Assembly (NCBI GenBank): GCA_043823435.1
Contig: JBDRAV010000003.1
Coordinates: forward strand, 96,366 to 160,365
Length of the DNA: 64,000 nt
Source: Candidatus Omnitrophota bacterium
GTDB taxonomy: Bacteria; Omnitrophota; Gorgyraeia; Gygaellales; Profunditerraquicolaceae
Direction of reading: 5' to 3'
Part shown: positions 14,974 to 61,517 of the stretch, in pieces
How positions within the stretch are numbered: position 1 is the stretch's first letter
Layout of the letters: each line of letters opens with the position of its first letter
Translations under genes and position numbers: made by a program
The notes under the pieces: model-generated
Told to the model about the DNA's origin: nothing
Databases searched by the model: none
What the model saw: the letters and a program-made list of their open reading frames with translations, nothing else

Positions 14974-16737
14974 TCACCTCTTTATTATTTTTTTAAGTTC
15001 TTCCTTCACCGGCACGCCATGCGAACTGAATATCTCCCGGTTATCCAGCAGATACGCCGGCCCCAACATAATTTGCAATTCCTCACTCAGCGCAATATTC
15101 TCCCTTAGAAGCCTATTCCCTTCTTCTCCGCGCGCGCAAATACTTATCTTATCCGTATCTGCTTCACCTAAGCAATCCTGCCACCATGAACTATTAATAG
15201 AATTCACCCGGCAGCTGATATAATTCCAAAACTCCTGAGGGTAATATTTCTGGACACAGACGCTGCGCAGGCATTCCTCTACTTCAAGGTTCCCTCCCTT
15301 TGCCTCAAACTTTCCCCCGGCCTTTTCGACAACTAAGAAATGCACAATAGGGTTGAATTCTCTTATCGTATTCAATAATGCCCGGGCATCCTTATGGTAT
15401 AAACTCATAAATAAATCCAGCCTTCCCTTAACGGGCTTTCTATCCAGATAATAAGCAATGCCGCTAAAACTGGGATTTAACATATAAAAATCACCCTTTG
15501 CCTGCAGGTTATTCTTTAATTTTCCAAACCCACCCCCTTCTTCCGCTTCTTTCCCCAGAAGATAAACCGGCAGGACATCGATACCCAAATCTTTGATTAA
15601 TCTGTCGGCTTCTTTCCCTGGATAATATAGGTAAGATACTGATAATCCAGGAAAGTATGTCTTCAAAAGGCTCTCCTTATCTTTAGTATAACATGTACTG
15701 CAAAGTTTAGAGGTAATGATCGAGAGGGGGACCTTGACTGCTTTAGTGAATACGCACCGTGCCTGCAATATACCGGGGGAGTCACATCTTCCTACCGACC
15801 CCTCCTGTTTGCAATTATTATCGGAGAAACAGCGCGGTAAAATAGACAGTATATCCGGATCATCGGATATCTTATCTGAAAGACGCAACTCTTCTACCCT
15901 GTAATTCGCTACTTTATTATCATTCAAATCCATGGTTAATTTCCCGATGCCGCGTCCCTGCCAGGAAGGCCTTAATATCAAAACGGCGCCTTCTTTGCTA
16001 AAAATATCTTTCTTTGTGCGGCTATGGCCTACAATAAGGATACCTATCCCCTCGACTTCCTTCAATAAACTTAAATCCTCACTCTCGCCCAGATGGCTTA
16101 TGAGTATAATAAGGTCTACTCTATTCTTTTTTAATTCTGATACTGCCTCTTTAACCGCTGTTTTCGGATCAATAAACCGCATGCCGCTTGCTCCGGCCTT
16201 CTGCTCTGCCAGAGAATTAGTCAAGCCGATTATACCTATCTTCCTGCCGGCGGATTCTTTTATAATATATGGCTTGAGCAAAGGAACCCCCGCCCCTTCT
16301 GCACAGATATTAGAAGAAAGAAAAGCTATCCGCGTCTTCCCGACATTATCCTGGAGGAACTCCATGCCGAAGTTAAATTCATCATCTCCGACTGTAGCGG
16401 CATCATACTTCATTAATTCCATTGCCTCAAGATTTACGATGGAGCGTTGCATATCCAGTTCTGTATTCTGGGTATATTCATCCTGAAGCCCGCCGGCAAA
16501 GAATCCGCCTGAATCTAACAATAAGAGGTCAGGGCTATCCTTTCTTAACTCTTTGATCAAGGTAGCGCGCCGCGCTATCCCGCCGTCCGACTGGTAATGG
16601 CAATTGCAAGGATAAAGCATTGCGTGCGTCTCGCCGGTATATAGTATGGTAATCTCCTGGGCGCTTATATCACTAGAGAACAGAAAACAGAAAACAAAGA
16701 GTGCTAGGGAGAATATAGATAAACTTTTTCTTGTCAT
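14974..16737 (-). CDS. secreted 5'-nucleotidase/metallophosphoesterase-like domain fused to Cys-rich and thioredoxin/DsbA-like C-terminal regions
   Basis: 587 aa. Signal peptide, then a UshA-like N-terminal half with altered metal motifs. Next comes a four-Cys cluster, a CSTC (CxxC) motif and a second Trx-like segment. Confidence 0.6.
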   Translation of the reverse strand: MTRKSLSIFSLALFVFCFLFSSDISAQEITILYTGETHAMLYPCNCHYQSDGGIARRATLIKELRKDSPDLLLLDSGGFFAGGLQDEYTQNTELDMQRSIVNLEAMELMKYDAATVGDDEFNFGMEFLQDNVGKTRIAFLSSNICAEGAGVPLLKPYIIKESAGRKIGIIGLTNSLAEQKAGASGMRFIDPKTAVKEAVSELKKNRVDLIILISHLGESEDLSLLKEVEGIGILIVGHSRTKKDIFSKEGAVLILRPSWQGRGIGKLTMDLNDNKVANYRVEELRLSDKISDDPDILSILPRCFSDNNCKQEGSVGRCDSPGILQARCVFTKAVKVPLSIITSKLCSTCYTKDKESLLKTYFPGLSVSYLYYPGKEADRLIKDLGIDVLPVYLLGKEAEEGGGFGKLKNNLQAKGDFYMLNPSFSGIAYYLDRKPVKGRLDLFMSLYHKDARALLNTIREFNPIVHFLVVEKAGGKFEAKGGNLEVEECLRSVCVQKYYPQEFWNYISCRVNSINSSWWQDCLGEADTDKISICARGEEGNRLLRENIALSEELQIMLGPAYLLDNREIFSSHGVPVKEELKKIIKR

Positions 16738-19694: not shown

Positions 19695-20300
19695 TTATTT
19701 TTTCTTGGTCTCTATCACCTCATCTACCAGGCCGTATTCTTTGGCTTCCTCGGCAGACATAAAGTAATCGCGGTCGGTATCCTTAAGTATCTTATCTAAC
19801 GGCTGTTTCGTATGGTATGAGAGGATTTCATTTATCTTGTCGCGCAATTTCATGATCTCCTGGGCATGCCTGGAGATATCCTCCGCTGCACCCTGGACTC
19901 CTCCCCAGGGCTGATGGATCATCACCCGCGAATTCGGCAAAGCGAAACGCTTTCCTCTTGTGCCGGCGCACAAAAGGAGTGCGCCCATGCTGGTTGCCTG
20001 GCCCACGCAATAAGTAGCTACATTCGGCTTTACAAACTGCAGGGTATCGTATATCGCTAAGCCCGCGGTCACAGATCCGCCCGGGGAATTAATGTATACG
20101 TTTATATCTTTATTTACATCCTCCATCTGAAGGAATAATAGCTGCGCAATAATCAGGTTCGCCACGATATCGTCGATAGGCGTACCTATAAAAACAATGC
20201 GGTCCTTAAGTAAGCGCGAATAAATATCATAAGCGCGTTCATAACCCCGCGATGTCTGCTCAATAACCATCGGCACTAGAGTCTGGTTTTTTATGCTCAT
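19695..20300 (-). CDS. clpP: ATP-dependent Clp protease proteolytic subunit
   Basis: 201 aa. ClpP family with Ser (GQATSMGA) and His (MIHQP) active-site contexts. Downstream of tig. Confidence 0.95.
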
Positions 20301-20316
20301 ATTCTACCCCCCTTAA

Positions 20317-20381
20317 GTTTTGAGTCTTGAGTTTTGAGTTTATTCTCCAGCTTCTAACTCTTAGCTCATAACTCCTAACTA
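20317..20381. repeat. two-armed heptanucleotide-periodic palindrome (GAGTTNN units)
   Basis: Left arm: gttttga gtcttga gttttga gtttatt (20317-20344). Right arm: ctaactc ttagctc ataactc ctaacta (20354-20381). The right arm overlaps the tig stop codon. Confidence 0.75.
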
Positions 20382-21250
20382 TTTTGCCAGTCCGCTTCTC
20401 TCAATAAAAACTCCATAACCTTACGAGGCATATGGTCGTCTATGGGTATATTTTCCTTCTTGGCAATAGCGGACAGGATCAGATAAACCCTGACCTGTTT
20501 CTTCGCTTCCTGTTCCAGCTGTCCGGTTATCGCTTTCTCCTGCTCTTCTATTTTTTCTCGCGAGACCCCCTTTAAAGCCAGGTCTAATTTAGTCTGCCTG
20601 AGCATATCCTGCAACTGACGGTTGACCAGGCCTTGAGGCAATTTAAAATCCAGACCCTTACTAATATTCTCCACGATCTCCTTCTCTATCTTCTGCCTCT
20701 GCTGGTTCTCTTCGCGTAGGTAAATCTCTTTCTCCACCGCCTTCTCTAATTCAGAAAGCATGGGATAACCTAATGACCTGGAAAAATTATCGTCTACAGT
20801 CTCTATTTTTCTTGTTTCTTTAATGGAATCGATATTGCGCTTTATCATATCCGCGCTAACTTCTATCTTCTTATAATTCACCCTGATACCCTTATAGTTT
20901 TTTATCGGGATCTGTGGGCTTATCTCTACCCTCGCCTTGAATGAAAGACTACCCCTGTCCAGTTTCACTTCGGATACTTCGGGCAGTTCTATAACCTCAA
21001 GGCCCTCCTTATCTATCGCCTGGTTATAAAGCTCGGGGATAAGTTCCTTCATTACCAACTCATGCGCATGAGAGGAATATTTCTTTTCCAGGATATCGCG
21101 TGGGGCATGGCCGGGCCGAAAACCTGGTATCTTGGCCTCTTTCGATATCTGTGCAAAAACATCATTAAATTTATTCTTGACCAGATCGCCGCTTACCTCA
21201 ATACTGATCTCCCTTTTGTTGCTGTCTATCTCTTTGACTTCAGTTTTCAC
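20375..21250 (-). CDS. tig: trigger factor, short form without recognisable PPIase domain
   Basis: 291 aa. N-terminal ribosome-binding signature GFRPGHAP and C-terminal arm-domain-like sequence. GTG start at 21250 preceded by a purine-rich RBS. Confidence 0.85.
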   Translation of the reverse strand: MKTEVKEIDSNKREISIEVSGDLVKNKFNDVFAQISKEAKIPGFRPGHAPRDILEKKYSSHAHELVMKELIPELYNQAIDKEGLEVIELPEVSEVKLDRGSLSFKARVEISPQIPIKNYKGIRVNYKKIEVSADMIKRNIDSIKETRKIETVDDNFSRSLGYPMLSELEKAVEKEIYLREENQQRQKIEKEIVENISKGLDFKLPQGLVNRQLQDMLRQTKLDLALKGVSREKIEEQEKAITGQLEQEAKKQVRVYLILSAIAKKENIPIDDHMPRKVMEFLLREADWQNS

Positions 21251-28220: not shown

Positions 28221-30248
28221 TCAACTATTCAAAATGGCATCCGCGGCAACTATAACATCATCCGTGGTTATCGCTTTAAGACACGCGAACTTCTTGGTGC
28301 AGTTATGCGCCAGACACTCTATACATCCGACCTCTTTATGCAGGACTTTATCTTTTATCCCGATCGGGCCCCAGCGTAGCGGCCCTAAACCCTTCTGGTT
28401 CCTGCCAAAAATAGAGATCACCGGTGTGCCTACGGCCACGGCAATATGCACGGGGCCGGAATCATTAGAGATAAATAAATCACACCTCTTCAAGATGCTG
28501 GCTAACTGGCTGACCGAAGTCTTTCCTGCCAGGTTGACCGCTGGCCGCTGCATATGTTTGACGACGCTCTCAGCCAACGTAATATCCTTAGGACCGCAGA
28601 CCACCAACACCTTGAAGCCATATTTTTCGTTTAACCTGTCAGCTGCTTCAGCGAACCCCTCATACGGCCAGATCTTCGAAGGGCAACTCGCACCCGGATG
28701 TATAGCTAATAATTTATCTGTCTCGCTTATCCCTTCCTGCCTGAACAACTCTTCTACCCAGGCTTCGGATTCTGGTTTCAGTGACATGAATATTTTATTG
28801 TCTTGCGGCTCAATGCCCAGATACCTGACTAAATCCAGGGCATACTCTGACTCATGTTTTTCTCCTGACTGCTTGGTATGCTTTATCCTGTCGGTAAGTA
28901 AAAATCCCAGTTTGCGGTCATAGCCGACCCTGCGGCGTATGCCGGCAAAGAGAGTCACCAGATGCGCGCGGTTGGTAGGATGAAGTATGACCGCTAAAGT
29001 AAACCTCCTCTTCTTAAGTCCCTGCGAGAATCTTAATGAACCCAACCAGCCTTTTTCTTTACCGTCCTTATCGTAAATAATCACTTCATCTAGACACGGA
29101 TTTCCGTCCACGATATCTTTTGTATAAGGAGAGACCATCGCCGCAATATATGCTGAAGGACAGCTATCCCTCAGTGCCTTTATTACCGGAGTCGATAAAA
29201 GCACGTCCCCTATCCTGTCCGTACGCACGATGAGTATGCGTTTATACTCGGTGCTCGGTGCTCGGTGCTCGGTGCTCTGAATTAATATTCTTCTGGCTTG
29301 CCTCAATACGTCTTCTGTTTTGATAAGCTGCATGCATCTTAATGTACCGTGGGCGCACTGCGCTTTTTCGCAAGGACGACAGAAGATATCTTTTTTTACT
29401 ACCGAATATAAGCGTGACCGGGGGCCGTATTTTCTTTCATTGGTCGGTCCGAAAACCGCCACAACCGGCGTATCCAGGTAACTTGCCAGGTGAAGCGTGG
29501 CGCTATCATTGGTAACCACGAGCGCGGATTTTCTCAGTAAAGAGGCAAGCTGCGCAATATTCGTCTTTGCGCTTAGATCCAAAAGGGGATATCGCGTATG
29601 CCCGGCTATGTATTTGTTGACCGGCGCGTCATCATTATCGCCGACCAAAACCACTTTGACTTTAAGCTCTTCTATTAAAGACTCGATTAACTGCGCGAAT
29701 TTATCCTGCTCCCATCTTTTTATATGGCTCCTGGCTCCGGCAGCAATAACGACTATCCTTTCCTGCCCGGTAATATTATTTTCCTTAAGAATATCTATAA
29801 TATATCTTTCATCTTCAGGCTTAACGCATAAAGACACCTGTTTAGTTTTATCATAAAGTCTCAACTTGAGTTTTAGCACCCTGTACAGGTGTCTATCTCT
29901 CATATGCATTATGCATTTTGGAATAACCAGAAGAGGGGAAGTCTTATCTCTGGCAGGTAACAACGCCCCGAAAAGACTGTTACGCATATCCGCGATGATG
30001 TCAAAGCCTTCAACTTTAAGCGCATTAAATAATTTTATCTTCTCCCTTAATGAAGAACGCTTATCGTAAATAATAAGCCTCTTAATATGGGGATTATCCC
30101 GGAATATATCTTTTGTGCGAACCCCGGATACTACCGTGACCTCTGACCCGGAGAAATTATCCACCAGGGTATCCAGGACCGGTAAAGTAAGGATGCAGTC
30201 GCCTATATTGCTTAAAGTAATAAAGAGTACCTTATTAACCATACCCAT
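28221..30248 (-). CDS. tandem glycosyltransferase family 9 (two heptosyltransferase-like modules in one ORF)
   Basis: 675 aa. Two GT9-type N-terminal motifs (VLFITLSNIGDCILTLP and ILIVRTDRIGDVLLSTP) and two C-terminal SNDSGPxH-like motifs. The modules are joined by a heptamer-repeat-encoded linker. Confidence 0.8.
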   Translation of the reverse strand: MGMVNKVLFITLSNIGDCILTLPVLDTLVDNFSGSEVTVVSGVRTKDIFRDNPHIKRLIIYDKRSSLREKIKLFNALKVEGFDIIADMRNSLFGALLPARDKTSPLLVIPKCIMHMRDRHLYRVLKLKLRLYDKTKQVSLCVKPEDERYIIDILKENNITGQERIVVIAAGARSHIKRWEQDKFAQLIESLIEELKVKVVLVGDNDDAPVNKYIAGHTRYPLLDLSAKTNIAQLASLLRKSALVVTNDSATLHLASYLDTPVVAVFGPTNERKYGPRSRLYSVVKKDIFCRPCEKAQCAHGTLRCMQLIKTEDVLRQARRILIQSTEHRAPSTEYKRILIVRTDRIGDVLLSTPVIKALRDSCPSAYIAAMVSPYTKDIVDGNPCLDEVIIYDKDGKEKGWLGSLRFSQGLKKRRFTLAVILHPTNRAHLVTLFAGIRRRVGYDRKLGFLLTDRIKHTKQSGEKHESEYALDLVRYLGIEPQDNKIFMSLKPESEAWVEELFRQEGISETDKLLAIHPGASCPSKIWPYEGFAEAADRLNEKYGFKVLVVCGPKDITLAESVVKHMQRPAVNLAGKTSVSQLASILKRCDLFISNDSGPVHIAVAVGTPVISIFGRNQKGLGPLRWGPIGIKDKVLHKEVGCIECLAHNCTKKFACLKAITTDDVIVAADAILNS
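29247..29274. repeat. (CTCGGTG)x4 tandem heptamer inside the tandem-GT9 ORF
   Basis: Four perfect copies, 29247-29274, followed by a partial ctc. They encode STEHRAPSTE in the inter-module linker. Confidence 0.9.
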
Positions 30249-31367: not shown

Positions 31368-32152
31368 TATTTATGGCGGTGCTCCCGCATAAAATTATAA
31401 TACCCGTTCGTCTCCGCCCAGAAGACAAACAGGTTACGCGCATTCGAGGATATCCTCAACCTCTTCAGGGCGAATATGTCGTCATCGGAGAATTCTTTAC
31501 CGGGGTTGGTGGCTACGGCTAACTTGTATCCCGCTTCCATAACCAACTGTTTTATCCTGTCATTAAACCTGCCTTCCGGATAACTGAAGGCATTGATCGG
31601 CCGGCCTAACTTATCTTCCAGTATCCTCTTGGAACCAAAGATCTGTCCCCTTATCTCCTCTTCAGATTTTATATTAACCAACGGTTCCGGCCCGAAGGTA
31701 TGGCTACCAAAGGTAATGATACCCGAATCCCGCATCTCATTGATCTCTTTCCAGCTTAGCCTGTCCGGCCTACCCACTTCGTCAATAATGATAAAGATCG
31801 TTGCGGGAAGGTTATATTTCTTTAGTATGGGAAAGGCATAAATATAATTATCCTTGTACCCGTCGTCAAAGGTTATGCTGACTGTCTTATGGGGGACCCT
31901 CTTTCCTTCTTCGATCAAAGCGGCGATAGGCTCAAGAGAGAGCACATTGTAATTATTATTTTTAAGGAAACGCATCTGGCGCTCAAAGGTCTCAGGAGTC
32001 AGCGCAAGCCTGTTTTGCGGCAGGGCATGCGGGTCAACCGAATGGTACATTGCTATAGGCACGGTATAATTGCCATATATAAAGACCGCCGAGGAACCCA
32101 ATGCAAAAATAAGCAGGGCAAAAAGGACAATTAAGAATCTGCGTTTAAACAT
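31367..32152 (-). CDS. polysaccharide deacetylase (CE4/NodB family)
   Basis: 261 aa. N-terminal TM helix and the TFDDGY motif. Confidence 0.85.
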   Translation of the reverse strand: MFKRRFLIVLFALLIFALGSSAVFIYGNYTVPIAMYHSVDPHALPQNRLALTPETFERQMRFLKNNNYNVLSLEPIAALIEEGKRVPHKTVSITFDDGYKDNYIYAFPILKKYNLPATIFIIIDEVGRPDRLSWKEINEMRDSGIITFGSHTFGPEPLVNIKSEEEIRGQIFGSKRILEDKLGRPINAFSYPEGRFNDRIKQLVMEAGYKLAVATNPGKEFSDDDIFALKRLRISSNARNLFVFWAETNGYYNFMREHRHK

Positions 32153-33222: not shown

Positions 33223-35324
33223 CCCGCTGCCTGTTTACCTAACAGTTTATATATCGCCTCTAATACCTCTTCAGGTTTTATTGATTCCATGCACTCTATA
33301 GTTTTACAGCGTGACCTATAACAGGGGGCACAATCCAGACCCTTCTTGAGCACCACGCATTCTTTCGCCTTCGGTAGGTGCCGCCCGGACTCAGTGGCAC
33401 CGAAGAGGGCAACGAAAGGCACCTTTTGGCTAACCGCCACATGCAGGGGCGCCGAATCGGGAGAAATAAAAACGGAACACCGCTTAATCAGGCATGCCAG
33501 CTGATTCACCGTAGTCTTGCCGCAGGCATTGATTATCTTTATATTCTTGAGCTTGCTGGTCAATGCATTAGCTGCGTTTATATCTTTTTCCGTACCGGTG
33601 ATCAAAACCCTGAATTCCCTACGGGCTAATTCCTCGGATAGCCTTGCGATATGATGCAACGGCCAGTTTTTAGTCGGCCACTTGGAACTTGCGCTTATAT
33701 TGATACCTATGAGCACCTGATTGTCGCTTAACCATTCCGATTTAAGAAAATCATCAACGTATTTTTCGTCCTGCGGGGACGGCCAAAGTTCAAGCATTGC
33801 GTCTTTCTGTTCTATGCCAAGCATCTTTAATATCCTGAACTGATGCTCTACGGGGTTGATAAGGGGGCGTTCGTCTTTTATGCGCCTATTGAGCAGAAAA
33901 CCAAACTTTTTATTATCGTATCCGTAACGCTTTAAGGCCAGGCTTAAAAAAGAAAGTATATGGCTCTTACGGTTATTCTGCAAATCTATGACTATATCAA
34001 AATCATTCTTTCTCAGCGTCGCGGCTAACCTGAGAAGCCCCCGCACGCCTTTATCCCTGTTTTTAAAGTCGCAAACCAGCAGTTCATCTATGTAGGGGCA
34101 ATTTAAAAGCAGGTCCCTTGATTCTTCGCTTACCAAGAAGTTGATCTTATGATTACGGCGGAACTTCTCCATTATCGCCCTAATGGCGGCAGTAGAAAGG
34201 ATAATATCCCCAAGAGAGCTGAATTTAATGATCAGAATCTTGAAATTACTGAGCGCCTCTTTATAAACATCAAGCGTGCTGCGCGCCATAAGCTCTAGAT
34301 TATATTTTTCCTTTACTTTCTTATAGGCGTTCTCCGCCAGCTTGCGGCCTAATTGCGGATCCCTGAATATCTTTATCGCGGCATCCGCAATACTCGCCGG
34401 GTCAGCAGAAGGAACAAGCAGGCCTGTCTTCTGGTCATCTATGATATCGACTACGCCCCCTACACGTGTAGCTACTACCGGAACACCGCATGCCTGTGCC
34501 TCCACGATCACTCTACCGAATGCCTCATGCGTGGTAGTCGCAAGTACCAGAAGATCAAGGTGCGCCAATATCCCGGGGATATCCCTCTGGTTCCCGAGGA
34601 ATTGCGTACAGTGCCACAGACCCAGACGTTTTACCAAAACCTGTACATGCTCTTTGTAGGCCTCTTTGGAGCCAGGGGCATCACCTACTATCCATACTTT
34701 CAGGCGCGGCACGCTCCTTGCGACATAAGCCATCGCCTTTATAAAATGCGGGTGACCTTTGATAGGGGTAATCCTCCCGACTATCCCCACGTTAAATTCA
34801 TCTTTTCTTTTCTCTTCGGGGCTGATATATTTGAATTTCTCAAGGTCAACGCTGCGTGGGATTAACCTGATGCGCTCGTGGGGGACGTCGAAATCTTCTA
34901 TCATATGCCGGACGATCACATTACTTAAAGCAATCACCCTCCTGCCCCATCCCATAACGTAACTGAATGGGTGTTTCTTATAATAACCATGGCAGGTAGT
35001 AATAAATGGTCTGCCCGTTTTACGGCAGGCGAAATATGCGATCCAGGCAGGGACGCGGGAGCGCGCGTGGACAATATCAATCTCTTCTTTCCTGATAATC
35101 GCGGATAATTTCGGTATCATCCTGAGCATGGTAAATATGGATTTCTTGTGCACCGGCAACTGGTAATGAATCGCTCCATAGGACTCAAGTTCCTTTACCA
35201 TGGCCCCGCCGTTCGAGACCACCACAGCCTTATGGCCGTTCTTGACTAAATACCTGGCCAGGTCAATGGTCCCGGTCTCGACTCCGCCTATATTGAGTTG
35301 TGGCAATATCTGTAAGATATTCAT
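33219..35324 (-). CDS. GT4-GT9 fusion glycosyltransferase
   Basis: 701 aa. N-terminal GT4 (GGVETGTIDL ... EAFGRVIVEAQACG), then directly a GT9 module (ILIIKFSSLGDIILST ... SPDSAPLHVA). Confidence 0.8.
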   Translation of the reverse strand: MNILQILPQLNIGGVETGTIDLARYLVKNGHKAVVVSNGGAMVKELESYGAIHYQLPVHKKSIFTMLRMIPKLSAIIRKEEIDIVHARSRVPAWIAYFACRKTGRPFITTCHGYYKKHPFSYVMGWGRRVIALSNVIVRHMIEDFDVPHERIRLIPRSVDLEKFKYISPEEKRKDEFNVGIVGRITPIKGHPHFIKAMAYVARSVPRLKVWIVGDAPGSKEAYKEHVQVLVKRLGLWHCTQFLGNQRDIPGILAHLDLLVLATTTHEAFGRVIVEAQACGVPVVATRVGGVVDIIDDQKTGLLVPSADPASIADAAIKIFRDPQLGRKLAENAYKKVKEKYNLELMARSTLDVYKEALSNFKILIIKFSSLGDIILSTAAIRAIMEKFRRNHKINFLVSEESRDLLLNCPYIDELLVCDFKNRDKGVRGLLRLAATLRKNDFDIVIDLQNNRKSHILSFLSLALKRYGYDNKKFGFLLNRRIKDERPLINPVEHQFRILKMLGIEQKDAMLELWPSPQDEKYVDDFLKSEWLSDNQVLIGINISASSKWPTKNWPLHHIARLSEELARREFRVLITGTEKDINAANALTSKLKNIKIINACGKTTVNQLACLIKRCSVFISPDSAPLHVAVSQKVPFVALFGATESGRHLPKAKECVVLKKGLDCAPCYRSRCKTIECMESIKPEEVLEAIYKLLGKQAAG

Positions 35325-37297
35325 AATACCTTCTTTATCGCTTCTTTAACCAGAAGGTTATCCTTAAGGGTATTTATCACGGGGCGCTCCAGCATTATCC
35401 GGTTGACTTCCGCGGAAAGGTTATCAGCTTGCGTTAAATATATATATCTCTTTTCGGCAAAATACTCAAGGAACCTGCGGTGCTTACTGTTTAGGCCCGG
35501 GGAATCAAAGACCACCACGTATCTTGCGCTGCTTACCGCCTCAGAGATCATGGATATGCTTTCGGCGGAGATAATGACGATATCGCTTAAGGCCAGTATC
35601 CCGGCTACCGCATCCGGGATATTCTTTTCATTGGCAATGATCAGAAGCTTGCATGCGGGATAATCAATGAATTCTTCCTTTAGTAAACTTTCAACCGCAA
35701 CCGGTGTCCTGCGCGAAGTAGTGACCATCAATTCTGCCCCAAACTTCTCTATGCCCATCTTGATCTGCCGCGATACTTCCTTCACCAAACCTGCATTCAA
35801 ATGAAAAGCCTTGGCATCACCGCCCACCAATACGCCCAATACCGGCACTTTACCGGCCTGAACACCCAGCTCTTTAAGGGCCTCTCCGGCCCTTTTCAGG
35901 CGATCTTCATTGATTGAATTTAACGCGCCTTCAATCACCGCGACATTCTTTCTTTCGGGGTGGCGGTGGCTTCGGCTATCGGCAACCAAACCAGGGCCCC
36001 CTGGCAGGTCATGCCGACTCATTACCACTAGGTCAAACCTGTTCGTACTTAATATAGAGGGTCGCATGAGCACTATCGATTTAGCCAGGCTCTCCCTTGA
36101 AATGACATAATTAACAGGTGCGACTGATGTCCCACAGGAGATCACTATGTCCGGTTTAATACTTATCAATTCCTTATAGATTTCTTCTTTCAATAACTTC
36201 TTCAGGCACCCCTGACAGGAGTATTTACCTGATAACACGCAGCTTGCGGCCATGGCAACGCGGGAATATTTACCCCTGAACTTTATCTCTACCGCATTAA
36301 CGCTTGTACTTATGCCTTTCTCGCGCAGGGAATCACTGACTATACCGGCAATCCCCTCAGACTGCCTGAGGTGCCCGGCCTTACCGTCGCTTAAGATCAA
36401 AATATTCCGCTCTCTGCTATATTTCCATATCTTGTACGACCAAAGGTAATCCCGCGGATATTTTACAATATACCTTTCAAATAAGGCCGTCAACGCCTGC
36501 AGATTATCATTTATATCCTTTTCCGGGTCGCCCGTTTTCTTGATTTCAAATGGCGGCTCAACAAAGGCCTTTATGTAGGGTCCTTTTACCCGCGTGTAAA
36601 AGGAAGGGATAATGCAGGCGTCATATTTCAGGGCGAGCCTCACCGCGCCCGAGGGCATAGAAGCGTATTTACCGAAAAATTTTACCTGCGTGCCCGACTT
36701 ACCGCCCTGGTCCGCGGTCATCCCTATCGCCTCATTATTCTTAAGCGCCTTTATCAACTCACGGGTCTGATCCTCCTTCTGGATCAACCTGCAGCCCTTC
36801 TGGTTGCGGTATGAATTAAGGAGGCCATTTAAACGCGGGAACTTCTGGACGCGGATAAAGAGGTTAAAAGGAAAACCCAGGTTCGCGCAGATAATGCTCG
36901 AGAGTTCCCAGCTGCCAGCGTGCACGGTGACAAGGATCACTCCCTTGCCTCTCTTGAAACCTTCATCTATATTCTCTTTACCGTAGATAACCGCATATTT
37001 ACTTATGTATGCCGCGTCCATCAGGGGGATCAGCAGTATCTCGACGAGGCTCTGCCCGAATGCCCGGTAAAATTCTTTTGTCAGGCGGTTTAATTCCCGG
37101 GGCGATAACCCCGCGCCGATTGCGGTTTTTATATTCACGTAAGCTATTGCCCTGTGTTTGCGGTCAAGGTAATAAAAAACTTCTCCCATCCTCGCGCCCA
37201 GGAAGATGCTCGCGCTAACAGGCAGACTCCTTATAAGCGGGCCGATGAGCTTAATGAGAAAATAACCCAAGTAATCTACTACGGAATCCTTCTTCAT
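35321..37297 (-). CDS. LpxL/HtrB-type lipid A acyltransferase fused to an ELM1/DUF1022-like domain
   Basis: 658 aa. The N-terminal ~290 aa carry the HAGSWE (Hx4E) acyltransferase motif. The C-terminal half begins ILILSDGKAGHLRQSEGIA, which is typical of DUF1022. Confidence 0.7.
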   Translation of the reverse strand: MKKDSVVDYLGYFLIKLIGPLIRSLPVSASIFLGARMGEVFYYLDRKHRAIAYVNIKTAIGAGLSPRELNRLTKEFYRAFGQSLVEILLIPLMDAAYISKYAVIYGKENIDEGFKRGKGVILVTVHAGSWELSSIICANLGFPFNLFIRVQKFPRLNGLLNSYRNQKGCRLIQKEDQTRELIKALKNNEAIGMTADQGGKSGTQVKFFGKYASMPSGAVRLALKYDACIIPSFYTRVKGPYIKAFVEPPFEIKKTGDPEKDINDNLQALTALFERYIVKYPRDYLWSYKIWKYSRERNILILSDGKAGHLRQSEGIAGIVSDSLREKGISTSVNAVEIKFRGKYSRVAMAASCVLSGKYSCQGCLKKLLKEEIYKELISIKPDIVISCGTSVAPVNYVISRESLAKSIVLMRPSILSTNRFDLVVMSRHDLPGGPGLVADSRSHRHPERKNVAVIEGALNSINEDRLKRAGEALKELGVQAGKVPVLGVLVGGDAKAFHLNAGLVKEVSRQIKMGIEKFGAELMVTTSRRTPVAVESLLKEEFIDYPACKLLIIANEKNIPDAVAGILALSDIVIISAESISMISEAVSSARYVVVFDSPGLNSKHRRFLEYFAEKRYIYLTQADNLSAEVNRIMLERPVINTLKDNLLVKEAIKKVL

Positions 37298-38351
37298 TTT
37301 TTATGATCTTCAATTCTATGCGCAGGAACCATACCGGCAACTTATAGCCGGTAACCGGAAGCTGGTAAAGCCTGGATGCGTCTTTCTCGGTAGTGACCAG
37401 CACGCTTATTCCCGTATCTGTGGATTTGCTAATAATCTCATCCATATCTTTCTGGGTATAATTATAATGGTCGCGGAACCTGAAAGAAGTGCCGATATTC
37501 ACCCCCTGTTTGCTGACCAGCAGCTCAAAAGAAGCGGGGTCCGCTATGGCAGAGAATAAACCCGCGCTCTTACCCGCCAGCATATCCGCCCCCATCAGTT
37601 CACGCGGTTTATCCAGCCTGCAAAATCCCAAAGGGGCATGCGCGGACTCTACCTGAAAGGCCCCCGGATTGATACGCCTCAAATAACCCTTGACCTCATC
37701 TTGTGCCGGGCTAATATTGGCCTTGGTCAGTATAAAGATGTCGGCGCGTTTAAGCGATGAAAGCGGCTCGCGCAATATCCCGCGGGGGATAAGATTACGG
37801 TTCCCGAAAGGGAAGGTACTGTCAACGGCAACTATCTCAAGGTCCTTTTTTATGCGCCACTGCTGCATCCCGTCATCCAAGATCACCGTATCCGCTCCGT
37901 AATCGCGTATTGCCGAATTTCCCGCGCGTATCCTATCATGATCTACTATCACGGGTATATCTTTCAAGTTCATCTGCAGCATATAAGGCTCATCGCCCAT
38001 TGCCTCGGCGTTCGGTGTTCGGTGTTCGGTGTTCGGCCGAGAACCGAGAACCGAGAACCGAGAACCCATTCTTTTATATCCTCTGCTAAGTATCGCTACT
38101 TTATGCCCATGCTCCTTTAAATAGCGCGCAATATACAATACGAGGGATGTCTTCCCTGTCCCGCCCAAAGTAATATTTCCCACGCTGATAACTTTACATC
38201 CCAGCCGGTAAGGTTTAATGCGATAAATAAAGAGTAATATCCTGACAACTAGTCCATAGATAAGAGAGATAAGGTAGAGAAAAGAATTGAGCGTCCCCGC
38301 TACGGGCCCTCTATGTTTATCTGTGGCCAGTTCGTAAATATAACGTAACAT
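37251..38351 (-). CDS. lpxK: tetraacyldisaccharide 4'-kinase
   Basis: P-loop GNITLGGTGKT, SRGY and GDEP motifs. I prefer the start at ATG 38351 (MLRYIYE), which overlaps the stop of the upstream gene (TGATG). The ORF-track start at 38507 lies inside that gene. Confidence 0.85.
   Translation of the reverse strand: MLRYIYELATDKHRGPVAGTLNSFLYLISLIYGLVVRILLFIYRIKPYRLGCKVISVGNITLGGTGKTSLVLYIARYLKEHGHKVAILSRGYKRMGSRFSVLGSRPNTEHRTPNAEAMGDEPYMLQMNLKDIPVIVDHDRIRAGNSAIRDYGADTVILDDGMQQWRIKKDLEIVAVDSTFPFGNRNLIPRGILREPLSSLKRADIFILTKANISPAQDEVKGYLRRINPGAFQVESAHAPLGFCRLDKPRELMGADMLAGKSAGLFSAIADPASFELLVSKQGVNIGTSFRFRDHYNYTQKDMDEIISKSTDTGISVLVTTEKDASRLYQLPVTGYKLPVWFLRIELKIIKNEEGFRSRLLGLFSH
38004..38064. repeat. 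two-armed heptamer palindrome inside lpxK
   Basis: ctcggcg (ttcggtg)x3 ttcgg, then (ccgagaa)x4. The central tcggccga is a perfect 8-nt palindrome. The element encodes GSRFSVLGSRPNTEHRTPNAE. Confidence 0.9.
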
Positions 38352-48294: not shown

Positions 48295-48310
48295 ATCTAC
48301 CTCCAATTTT

Positions 48311-48367
48311 GCACCTGGTGCCAGATTAACTTTGCACCAGGTGCAAAGTTAAGATTGTACCTGTCCC
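48311..48367. repeat. 23-nt-periodic array, 3 units, core GCACCWGGTGC
   Basis: Unit starts at 48311, 48334 and 48357. Cores read gcacctggtgc / gcaccaggtgc / gtacctgtccc. Unit 2 is the centre of a 25-nt perfect palindrome at 48327-48351. Confidence 0.85.
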
Positions 48368-50069: not shown

Positions 50070-50229
50070 AAGTGAGGATATAAGTTACGGGGTAGCTATT
50101 AACTGGCTAAACGAAATAACTTATAAGTCCGAACTTATATTTGAGAAATAACGAATAACTAAGGATCTCCCTCGCATCTTAAATGAATATAGGGGTGCTC
50201 GGGATAAATTCGCAGACGCCCTACGGGCT

Positions 50230-61372: not shown

Positions 61373-61517
61373 AGAGACGTTTTCCAACCTAATCCAGAGA
61401 CGTTTTCCGAGCTAATCGGGAACCTGTCCCCTATAAGGAACGGGTTCCGCTTTGGACCAGAAGACGTCTCCGCTTTGAGCTGGTAGACGTCTTTGCTTTG
61501 GGGCGGAAAGCGTCTCT
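61373..61517. repeat. two-armed 23-nt-periodic GAGACG/CGTCTC array (about 145 nt)
   Basis: Left-arm units at 61373 and 61396 (agagacgttttcc...). Central GGAACC/GGTTCC hairpin at 61419-61448. Right-arm CGTCT units at 61465, 61488 and 61511. Confidence 0.85.

Follow-up and report, generated by a model that had tools for sequence, protein, structure and literature searches.

Tandem repeats of seven nucleotides have been described in several groups of bacteria. For the over-represented heptameric simple sequence repeats (SSRs) of Mrazek et al. (2007, as summarised in PMC4692102), the units are GGGAATC in Xanthomonas and GGGGA(C/T)T in Nostoc, about four units are preferred, some arrays form inverted pairs, close relatives vary in length and sequence, and polymerase slippage is proposed as the origin; these repeats are overwhelmingly intergenic, with one G-rich unit per genus. 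The short tandemly repeated repetitive (STRR) heptamers of cyanobacteria can form hairpins, and some have been described within the gene for RNase P RNA (Vioque 1997, cited in PMC2858038). Direct repeats of the heptamer TAACTGA are found in Beggiatoaceae, Cyanobacteria and Bacteroidetes, with a single fixed unit that mostly lies just upstream of start codons and carries stops in the forward orientation (PMC4679880). In Haemophilus, phase variation of the HMW adhesins is driven by 7-bp repeats (PMC8262952). Here we analyze a heptanucleotide array in a member of the Omnitrophota, a phylum that no paper found in our literature search links with heptamer repeats. The array lies in a 64,000-nucleotide stretch of DNA (hereafter “the window”; positions 96,366 to 160,365 of contig JBDRAV010000003.1, assembly GCA_043823435.1, Candidatus Omnitrophota bacterium), inside an open reading frame (ORF) predicted to encode two modules of the heptosyltransferase family GT9. 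Our conclusion is that it is probably a slippage-prone repeat which persists because the linker joining the two GT9 modules is disordered and tolerates it, and that it is one of a lineage-wide class of arrays of about 30 nucleotides (nt).

The array consists of four copies of CTCGGTG followed by CTC on the plus strand (29247-29277, by direct reading), and Tandem Repeats Finder reports it as period 7 with 4.4 copies and 100% matches. The chance expectation for runs of 24 matches at lag 7 is about 3e-10 for the window as a whole, and with its several perfect tandem 7-nt units the array resembles the over-represented heptameric long SSRs described above. The coding strand is the minus strand, on which the unit is CACCGAG and the product is STEHRAPSTE, residues 325-334 of a 675-codon ORF (28221..30248, minus strand). 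The product of this ORF is 100% identical to a 673-residue NCBI protein from a Candidatus Omnitrophota metagenome-assembled genome, whose annotated start lies two codons later, at the third codon. The Pfam family PF01075 (GT9) matches the ORF in two stretches, corresponding to module 1 (residues 1-324, 29277..30248, minus strand), which ends with the helix ...EDVLRQARRIL, and module 2 (residues 335-675 and the stop codon, 28221..29246, minus strand), which begins YKRILIVRTDRIGD. An AlphaFold model based on 27 homologues (mean predicted local distance difference test score, pLDDT, 85.9) contains two complete GT9 modules. In the numbering of the annotated protein, residues 323-330 have a pLDDT below 50 and form a coil that coincides with the repeat-encoded peptide; this coil is preceded by the last helix of module 1 (309-320) and followed by the first strand of module 2 (335-339, RILIV). 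In the model, then, the linker is a disordered or low-confidence coil. The initial annotation, made from the bare sequence, had placed a fourfold heptamer encoding this peptide in the linker between the modules, and in this respect Tandem Repeats Finder, direct reading, Pfam and the structural model all agree with it. RNA folding gave the array no self-structure of note (-8.2 kcal/mol), and no Rfam family scored at its gathering threshold anywhere in the window.

It was further proposed that the 675-codon ORF may exist only because the present copy number keeps the frame open, and that relatives should be compared for the presence of one gene or two. We sampled 160 related GT9 loci, 80 from species-representative genomes and 80 from metagenomes, down to approximately 45% identity. 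In all 160 the two modules are encoded by a single ORF without interruption, and most of these loci have no repeat at all, which contradicts the proposed dependence on copy number. Both anchor motifs flanking the linker were found in 79 of the 80 and 75 of the 80 loci, respectively, with the modules always in the same frame and no stop between them, and the six loci where one or both anchors were not found are likewise single ORFs of 670-705 codons. At least 120 homologues at 61-75% identity were listed, and fused ORFs of 665-716 amino acids are what they generally have. Wherever a sampled linker holds a perfect array of 28 nt or more, the ORF is intact. In most loci 84-90 nt separate the two anchors, with an array or without, and more distant relatives (around 55% identity) have ordinary, non-repetitive linkers. 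Two GT9 domains in a single polypeptide, conserved in relatives, make this a tandem GT9 fusion protein, and by this sequence comparison the fusion is old and conserved and is not created by the repeat. Stand-alone proteins of about 325-334 amino acids resembling module 1, from other Omnitrophota, were considered as products of fission and rejected, since in the two contexts that we checked they stand in an unrelated neighbourhood (CrcB, DUF190, GT9, DinB), with no module 2 adjacent.

To follow the effect of copy number on the reading frame, the gene was rebuilt in silico with zero to eight heptamer units and each version was translated, which covers the variants with seven nucleotides more or less that the initial annotation had suggested translating. 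The two-module ORF was obtained only with one, four or seven units, while every other copy number led to a stop approximately 3-16 codons past the repeat (five units, for example, give ...STEHRAPSTEHRV followed by a stop). The unit is not a multiple of three, so its gain or loss shifts the frame, as it does in the repeats of contingency loci. Upstream of module 2 there is no ATG and no Shine-Dalgarno-like sequence, the sole available start being a GTG inside strand 1, and no promoter-like site was found on the coding strand near the linker. Because module 2 lacks start signals and a promoter-like site of its own, a change of one unit would silence it rather than leave two working genes, with the protein truncated after module 1. 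The suggestion that a one-unit change uncouples the modules is therefore half right, in that the frame is lost, but the fission into two genes that was envisaged would not follow.

It is clear from the homologues that the linker is a preferred site for heptamers of many kinds. Linker peptides often show a periodicity of seven residues and read as all three frames of different heptamers (TSYELRV TSYE, TNYQLPI TNYQ, IDHRPST IDHRP, PNTEHRT PNTE). At the DNA level, perfect linker arrays in relatives are 28-36 nt long with units that differ between loci, namely TTACCAA (L005), CCGAACA (L006), GTACCGA (L016), GGTGTCA (L023), TCATCCA (L046), AGGCACA (L047), AATTACG (L084), AGCTCGA (L127) and AGTTCAA (L152), and numerous further loci carry arrays decayed by point mutation. 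In other lineages the linker also harbours different palindromes in frame, with GGGGACGGTTCT...AGAACCGTCCCC, and GGGGACTGTCCCC twice, among the examples (L036, L149, L120 and L031), and from their variety the linker appears to gather several kinds of small elements that are usually intergenic.

When proteins are clustered at 90% identity or more, the variation within a cluster falls mainly in the linker. When strains of the closest species, with nearly identical flanks, were aligned at the DNA level, the array was (CACCGAA)4 in L161 and L006, (CACCGAG)4 in L162, TACCGAG followed by TATCGAG in L163 and (TGCACGC)3 in L081, while L164 has no repeat. Despite the different units the total length was constant or 6 nt longer. 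A given substitution is found in each of the units of its array, with hardly any change in the flanks, and the arrays thus undergo concerted evolution. Divergence between the strains reaches 13-36 per 100 nt in the 100-nt interval containing the array, compared with mostly 0-6 elsewhere in the gene, a difference of about tenfold, and the raised divergence extends about 80 nt upstream of the array. Between the window and L162 the situation is the reverse, with 31 of 31 array bases shared between flanks that are only 76.5% identical (p = 2.5e-4 at the flank rate). L161, L163, L164, L081 and L006 also show mosaic blocks of raised divergence beyond the array; L081 is diverged from +33 to +330 nt past it, and the gene's 3' end is diverged in every one of these strains. 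The mosaic pattern suggests frequent short-tract recombination in this lipopolysaccharide (LPS) gene cluster.

Arrays of this type are not confined to the GT9 linker. Among perfect arrays of at least four copies in 1.3 Mb, we found 15 with period 7, two with period 8 and one with period 10, and none with any other period from 4 to 15, an excess of period 7 over the neighbouring periods like that of the over-represented heptameric SSRs. A histogram of period-7 arrays in 2.3 Mb of related DNA falls from 89 arrays with 2.5 copies to 15 with 3 and three with 3.5, and then rises again to five with 4 copies, 17 with 4.5, seven with 5 and two with 5.5. It is thus bimodal, with a second mode around 4.5 copies or 31 nt, and the total lengths of the arrays with periods 8 and 10 are similar to this value. 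The arrays are not mostly intergenic, as they are in Xanthomonas and Nostoc: when 78 non-redundant arrays of 24 nt or more were placed on the reading frames, 61 fell within stretches of 150 or more codons free of stops. Units resemble each other within genomes: 25% of unit pairs within a genome are at a distance of at most 1, compared with 4.9% between genomes (permutation p < 0.0002), and the likeness is significant also when pairs less than 1 kb apart are left out. In L084 one unit is common to two loci 8.7 kb apart, and three arrays of the window are alike (CTCGGTG, TTCGGTG and the complement of CTCGGTT). Four sites recur, namely the GT9 linker, a position in GT9 module 1 after the motif DRHLY[KR], the SRGY...GDEP loop of LpxK and a C-terminal site in LpxK. 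These comparisons show that orthologues carry period-7 arrays at the same permissive positions but built from different units. The hot spot in module 1 corresponds to 29829-29888 of the window (residues 121-140 of the GT9 ORF), where relatives carry heptamer arrays, 10-nt arrays and hairpins; at this place no clear repeat is present in the window.

The second prominent site in the window is the lpxK ORF (PF02606, 37251..38507, minus strand), which contains two abutting arrays on the same strand. Array 1, (GTTCGGT)x4.6 at 38005..38036, has the coding unit CACCGAA and encodes PNTEHRTPNA; array 2, (CCGAGAA)x4.3 at 38037..38066, has the coding unit TTCTCGG and encodes GSRFSVLGSR. The two arrays are imperfect inverted copies of each other, and as RNA the pair can adopt a long hairpin structure (-32 to -34.5 kcal/mol). 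The unit of array 1 is one base from the GT9 unit CACCGAG and its peptide resembles STEHRAPSTE, so the kinship of the two repeats, pointed out already in the initial annotation, holds. The loop between SRGY and GDEP is 6-8 residues long in 15 of 41 relatives and 10-12 in others (range 6-28). With one array (CACAAGC x4.4) in L079 it is 17 residues, and in the window, where the two arrays add about 20 residues, it is 26. Where arrays are present the loop grows by approximately 10 residues at a time (7, 17, 26), and over the whole range its steps fit arrays of 30 nt and hairpins of 21 nt. In the same LPS cluster another fusion was noticed, a 658-residue ORF (35321-37297) combining a lipid A acyltransferase (PF03279) with an ELM1-like domain (PF06258).

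A fourth period-7 array of the window, 30 nt long and decayed (CTTAAGT TTTGAGT CTTGAGT TTTGAGT TT, 20312..20341, no strand assigned), is intergenic: clpP (19695..20300) and its upstream neighbour, an ORF at 20375..21250, are 74 nt apart, and the array falls in this gap, ending 12 nt upstream of the clpP start codon. A shorter repeat, (AGAAAAC)x3.1 at 16675-16696 (GTTTTCT on the coding strand), falls in the N-terminal hydrophobic stretch, apparently a signal peptide, of a 587-residue ORF (14974..16737). Two 23-nt direct repeats with two copies each were also seen, at 48308-48352 and 61373-61417 (Tandem Repeats Finder scores 62 and 76). The word CTCGGTG itself occurs nine times in the window where four are expected, and four of the nine are the array. 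The isolated units that had been singled out at 31377-31383 (CGGTGCT) and 50195-50201 (GTGCTCG) are single rotated 7-mers, and since chance alone should give about 55 of them in 64 kb (7 rotations x 2 strands x 64000/4^7), we attach no meaning to them.

In relatives the heptamer arrays are associated with a small GC-rich hairpin of 21 nt, CCTGCCTG-N5-CAGGCAGG, present in 35 dispersed copies in the 2.3 Mb of related DNA. Each of the copies that we read closely is embedded in a heptamer array whose phase runs on past the hairpin, and no target sequence is duplicated; examples are L014 10999-11019, L091 1178-1227, L126 1867-1908 and L106 14117-14221. At times the hairpin is itself in tandem (five copies in L106). 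Where it falls in the GT9 or lpxK gene, it is read through in frame and gives the peptide PACRQAG or PCLSGRQA, and within protein clusters of at least 90% identity its presence differs between close strains. The hairpin was not found in the 64-kb window, even with three mismatches allowed.

Considering all this, the reading that we regard as probable is that the GT9 array is for the most part filler that the protein tolerates, and not an established on/off switch. The array would occupy the one stretch, from the helix of module 1 to the strand of module 2, that may accept almost any hydrophilic sequence. Replication slippage, short-tract recombination or gene conversion, or both, would keep arrays homogeneous, while selection would purge copy numbers that are out of frame and preserve the length of the linker, and the encoded peptide would have no sequence-specific role. 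Four observations weigh against this account. The second mode near 31 nt does not agree with a simple slippage equilibrium, which predicts a monotonic distribution; an array of only four units that is homogenised by slippage of one unit at a time has to go through intermediates that are out of frame; the likeness of units within genomes and the hairpin inside arrays hint at a copy-and-paste or templated process; and two broken alleles of the GT9 gene exist in nature. The first of these alleles is seen when L165 is compared with L166. The two are identical over 2073 nt except for the loss of one 10-nt unit (AGGTTACCAG) at the module 1 hot spot, from four copies to three, which leaves ORFs of 153 and 534 amino acids. 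In the second, L176, the same LPS gene cluster holds two separate genes, of 379 and 336 amino acids, which meet at an (ACGAACG) array with a 45-nt hairpin in its midst. Here module 1 ends at the TAA of TATAAACG, the very stop that a variant of the window with one unit more would use, and module 2 is in the +1 frame. Removal of one heptamer in silico restores a 717-codon ORF, which points to a difference of one unit; the best match to L176 has approximately 70% nucleotide identity. Together the two alleles indicate that unit slippage does break the GT9 gene in nature, although rarely. Other apparent off alleles were discarded: in P0124/L162 the genes of the assembly are fragmented throughout and the stop is at residue 370 and not at the repeat, P0182 is cut by the contig end, and P0169/P0170 and P0138 break at other places.

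Broken alleles of this kind are what one would look for if the locus were a phase-variable contingency locus, in which slipped-strand events of 7 nt in either direction reversibly toggle module 2 and give two surface glycoforms, and LPS and lipooligosaccharide (LOS) glycosyltransferases are classic phase-variable genes. The non-triplet unit, with all of the tested copy numbers other than 1, 4 and 7 running into an early stop, L176 standing one unit from an intact ORF and L165 lacking one unit of an otherwise 100% identical intact gene all agree with such a switch, as does the concerted change of units, which implies turnover. Set against this, on and off copy-number variants are not found side by side, since all 160 loci are intact, among them each one whose linker array is perfect over 28 nt or more, and off alleles are limited to L176 and L165; in the latter case, a 690-residue homologue is unchanged on at least 24 contigs from many samples, compared with the one broken allele. 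Copy number is equal (4.4-4.7 units) in the window and in L161, L162 and L006, three strains of a 75%-identical species, so no variation in copy number was seen among close relatives, and since the initial annotation had itself named an invariant copy number as evidence against a switch, this argues against one on its own terms. Moreover, the tract has only about four units, numerous linker arrays are decaying by point mutation, and the occurrence of similar arrays in lpxK, in other ORFs and in intergenic DNA implies that they are not targeted to switchable genes. Judged from the sequences, the broken alleles fit occasional loss of function at least as well as a contingency mechanism, and the off alleles look like rare loss-of-function variants rather than a switch in use. 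Of the on/off switch originally suggested there remains the capacity to break the gene, by slippage at the linker in L176 and elsewhere in L165, but a locus that is regularly toggled appears unlikely.

A somewhat better, but still tentative, case can be made for discrete cassettes of about 30 nt, along with the 21-nt hairpin, being written, copied or replaced by a dedicated mechanism, for instance a miniature mobile element or templated synthesis, the linker being simply a place where an in-frame insertion survives. Local slippage explains the length mode, the sharing of units within genomes and the hairpins poorly, and for this reason such a mechanism has to be taken into account. The mode near 31 nt for period 7 is matched by the similar total lengths for periods 8 and 10 and by the LpxK loop, which grows in quanta of about 10 residues; units are shared within genomes more often than between them, and in L084 by two loci; blocks of the array are replaced between near-identical strains; and the hairpin sits in arrays with continuous phase and no target duplication and is polymorphic at 90% identity or more. 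Against the cassettes stands that no candidate enzyme, template or transposition signature was found and that the hairpin is absent from the window. The GT9 linker, furthermore, is not longer when it carries an array, a constancy that fits replacement or evolution in situ better than insertion, and the units at orthologous sites form a mutational series (CACCGAG, CACCGAA, TACCGAG, TATCGAG), as evolution in situ predicts, while the raised divergence in the 80 nt upstream of the array is what ordinary short-tract recombination between strains would also give. In its fullest form, an active and hitherto undescribed process in this clade of Omnitrophota would install and overwrite repeat cassettes at permissive sites, among them, in frame, the loops and linkers of conserved LPS enzymes, with cassettes moving or converting between the loci of a genome, being exchanged as blocks between near-identical strains and incidentally yielding off alleles of surface-glycan genes; this we consider rather doubtful. 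A repeat selected for a sequence-specific product, be it the linker peptide, an mRNA structure or a protein-binding site, could account for the array being identical in the window and L162 despite 23.5% divergence of the flanks and for the long hairpin of the lpxK pair. It is nevertheless very improbable, as linker peptides are wholly different between close strains and in some cases lack the repeat, the peptide is a low-confidence coil, and the GT9 array folds weakly and matches no Rfam family. Finally, chance similarity or an assembly artefact can hardly be entertained with the minute chance expectation given above and with in-frame arrays at the same site in many independent assemblies.

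Compared with the described systems, the tolerated arrays of the Omnitrophota share with the heptamers of Xanthomonas and Nostoc the excess of period 7, the preference for about four units, the inverted pairs and the variation in length and sequence at the same site in close relatives. They differ in that 78% lie in ORFs, in frame and in permissive loops or linkers of conserved enzymes, and in that the units are diverse and not prone to form G-quadruplexes. STRR heptamers in the strict sense belong to heterocystous cyanobacteria and have few fixed units, whereas here the host is a member of the Omnitrophota with many lineage-specific units. The two have in common that tandem units of 7 nt can form hairpins and are tolerated at a permissive spot in a functional gene. 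Elhai reportedly described, in 2008, small dispersed repeats that insert into the tandem heptamers of cyanobacteria, and if so the nesting of small hairpin elements in heptamer arrays would be a further likeness; however, the phylum is another one, the hosts are protein-coding rather than RNA genes or intergenic DNA, and nothing links the two mechanistically. With contingency loci such as hmw1A/hmw2A of Haemophilus influenzae and LOS glycosyltransferase genes, the GT9 array shares a non-triplet repeat in a surface-glycan gene where a change of one unit would abolish the product. In contingency loci on and off alleles are frequent and the tracts are usually longer, whereas here off alleles are very rare, there are only four units, and arrays are found also in lpxK and between genes. 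The TAACTGA repeats have a single unit containing stops, in contrast to the diverse units of the Omnitrophota, which are free of stops on the coding strand. Rickettsia palindromic elements, of approximately 100-150 nt and with a family consensus, are also found in frame in protein genes, and the likeness lies in short repeated DNA kept in frame at surface-exposed permissive sites of conserved proteins, although the present array is a non-palindromic tandem repeat of 31 nt. The present arrays thus stand apart from known heptamer repeats in several ways: they occur in another phylum, their units are diverse, they predominantly occupy in-frame coding sites that correspond between orthologues, and they are hypervariable block by block.

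Non-triplet repeats in coding DNA are normally purged or mark phase-variable genes, but in this uncultivated phylum they are common in conserved and probably important enzymes. The arrays are among the fastest-evolving sequences between strains and could serve as strain-level markers, and they provide a natural map of insertion-tolerant sites in GT9 and LpxK. For annotators, it should be kept in mind that split GT9 or lpxK genes may be repeat-slippage alleles. Should a dedicated mechanism turn out to be responsible, it would represent a new kind of miniature genome-shaping element outside the cyanobacteria, and should the bacteria use the slippage of units to switch the gene, this would give a first hint of phase-variable LPS in free-living or epibiotic bacteria of candidate phyla.

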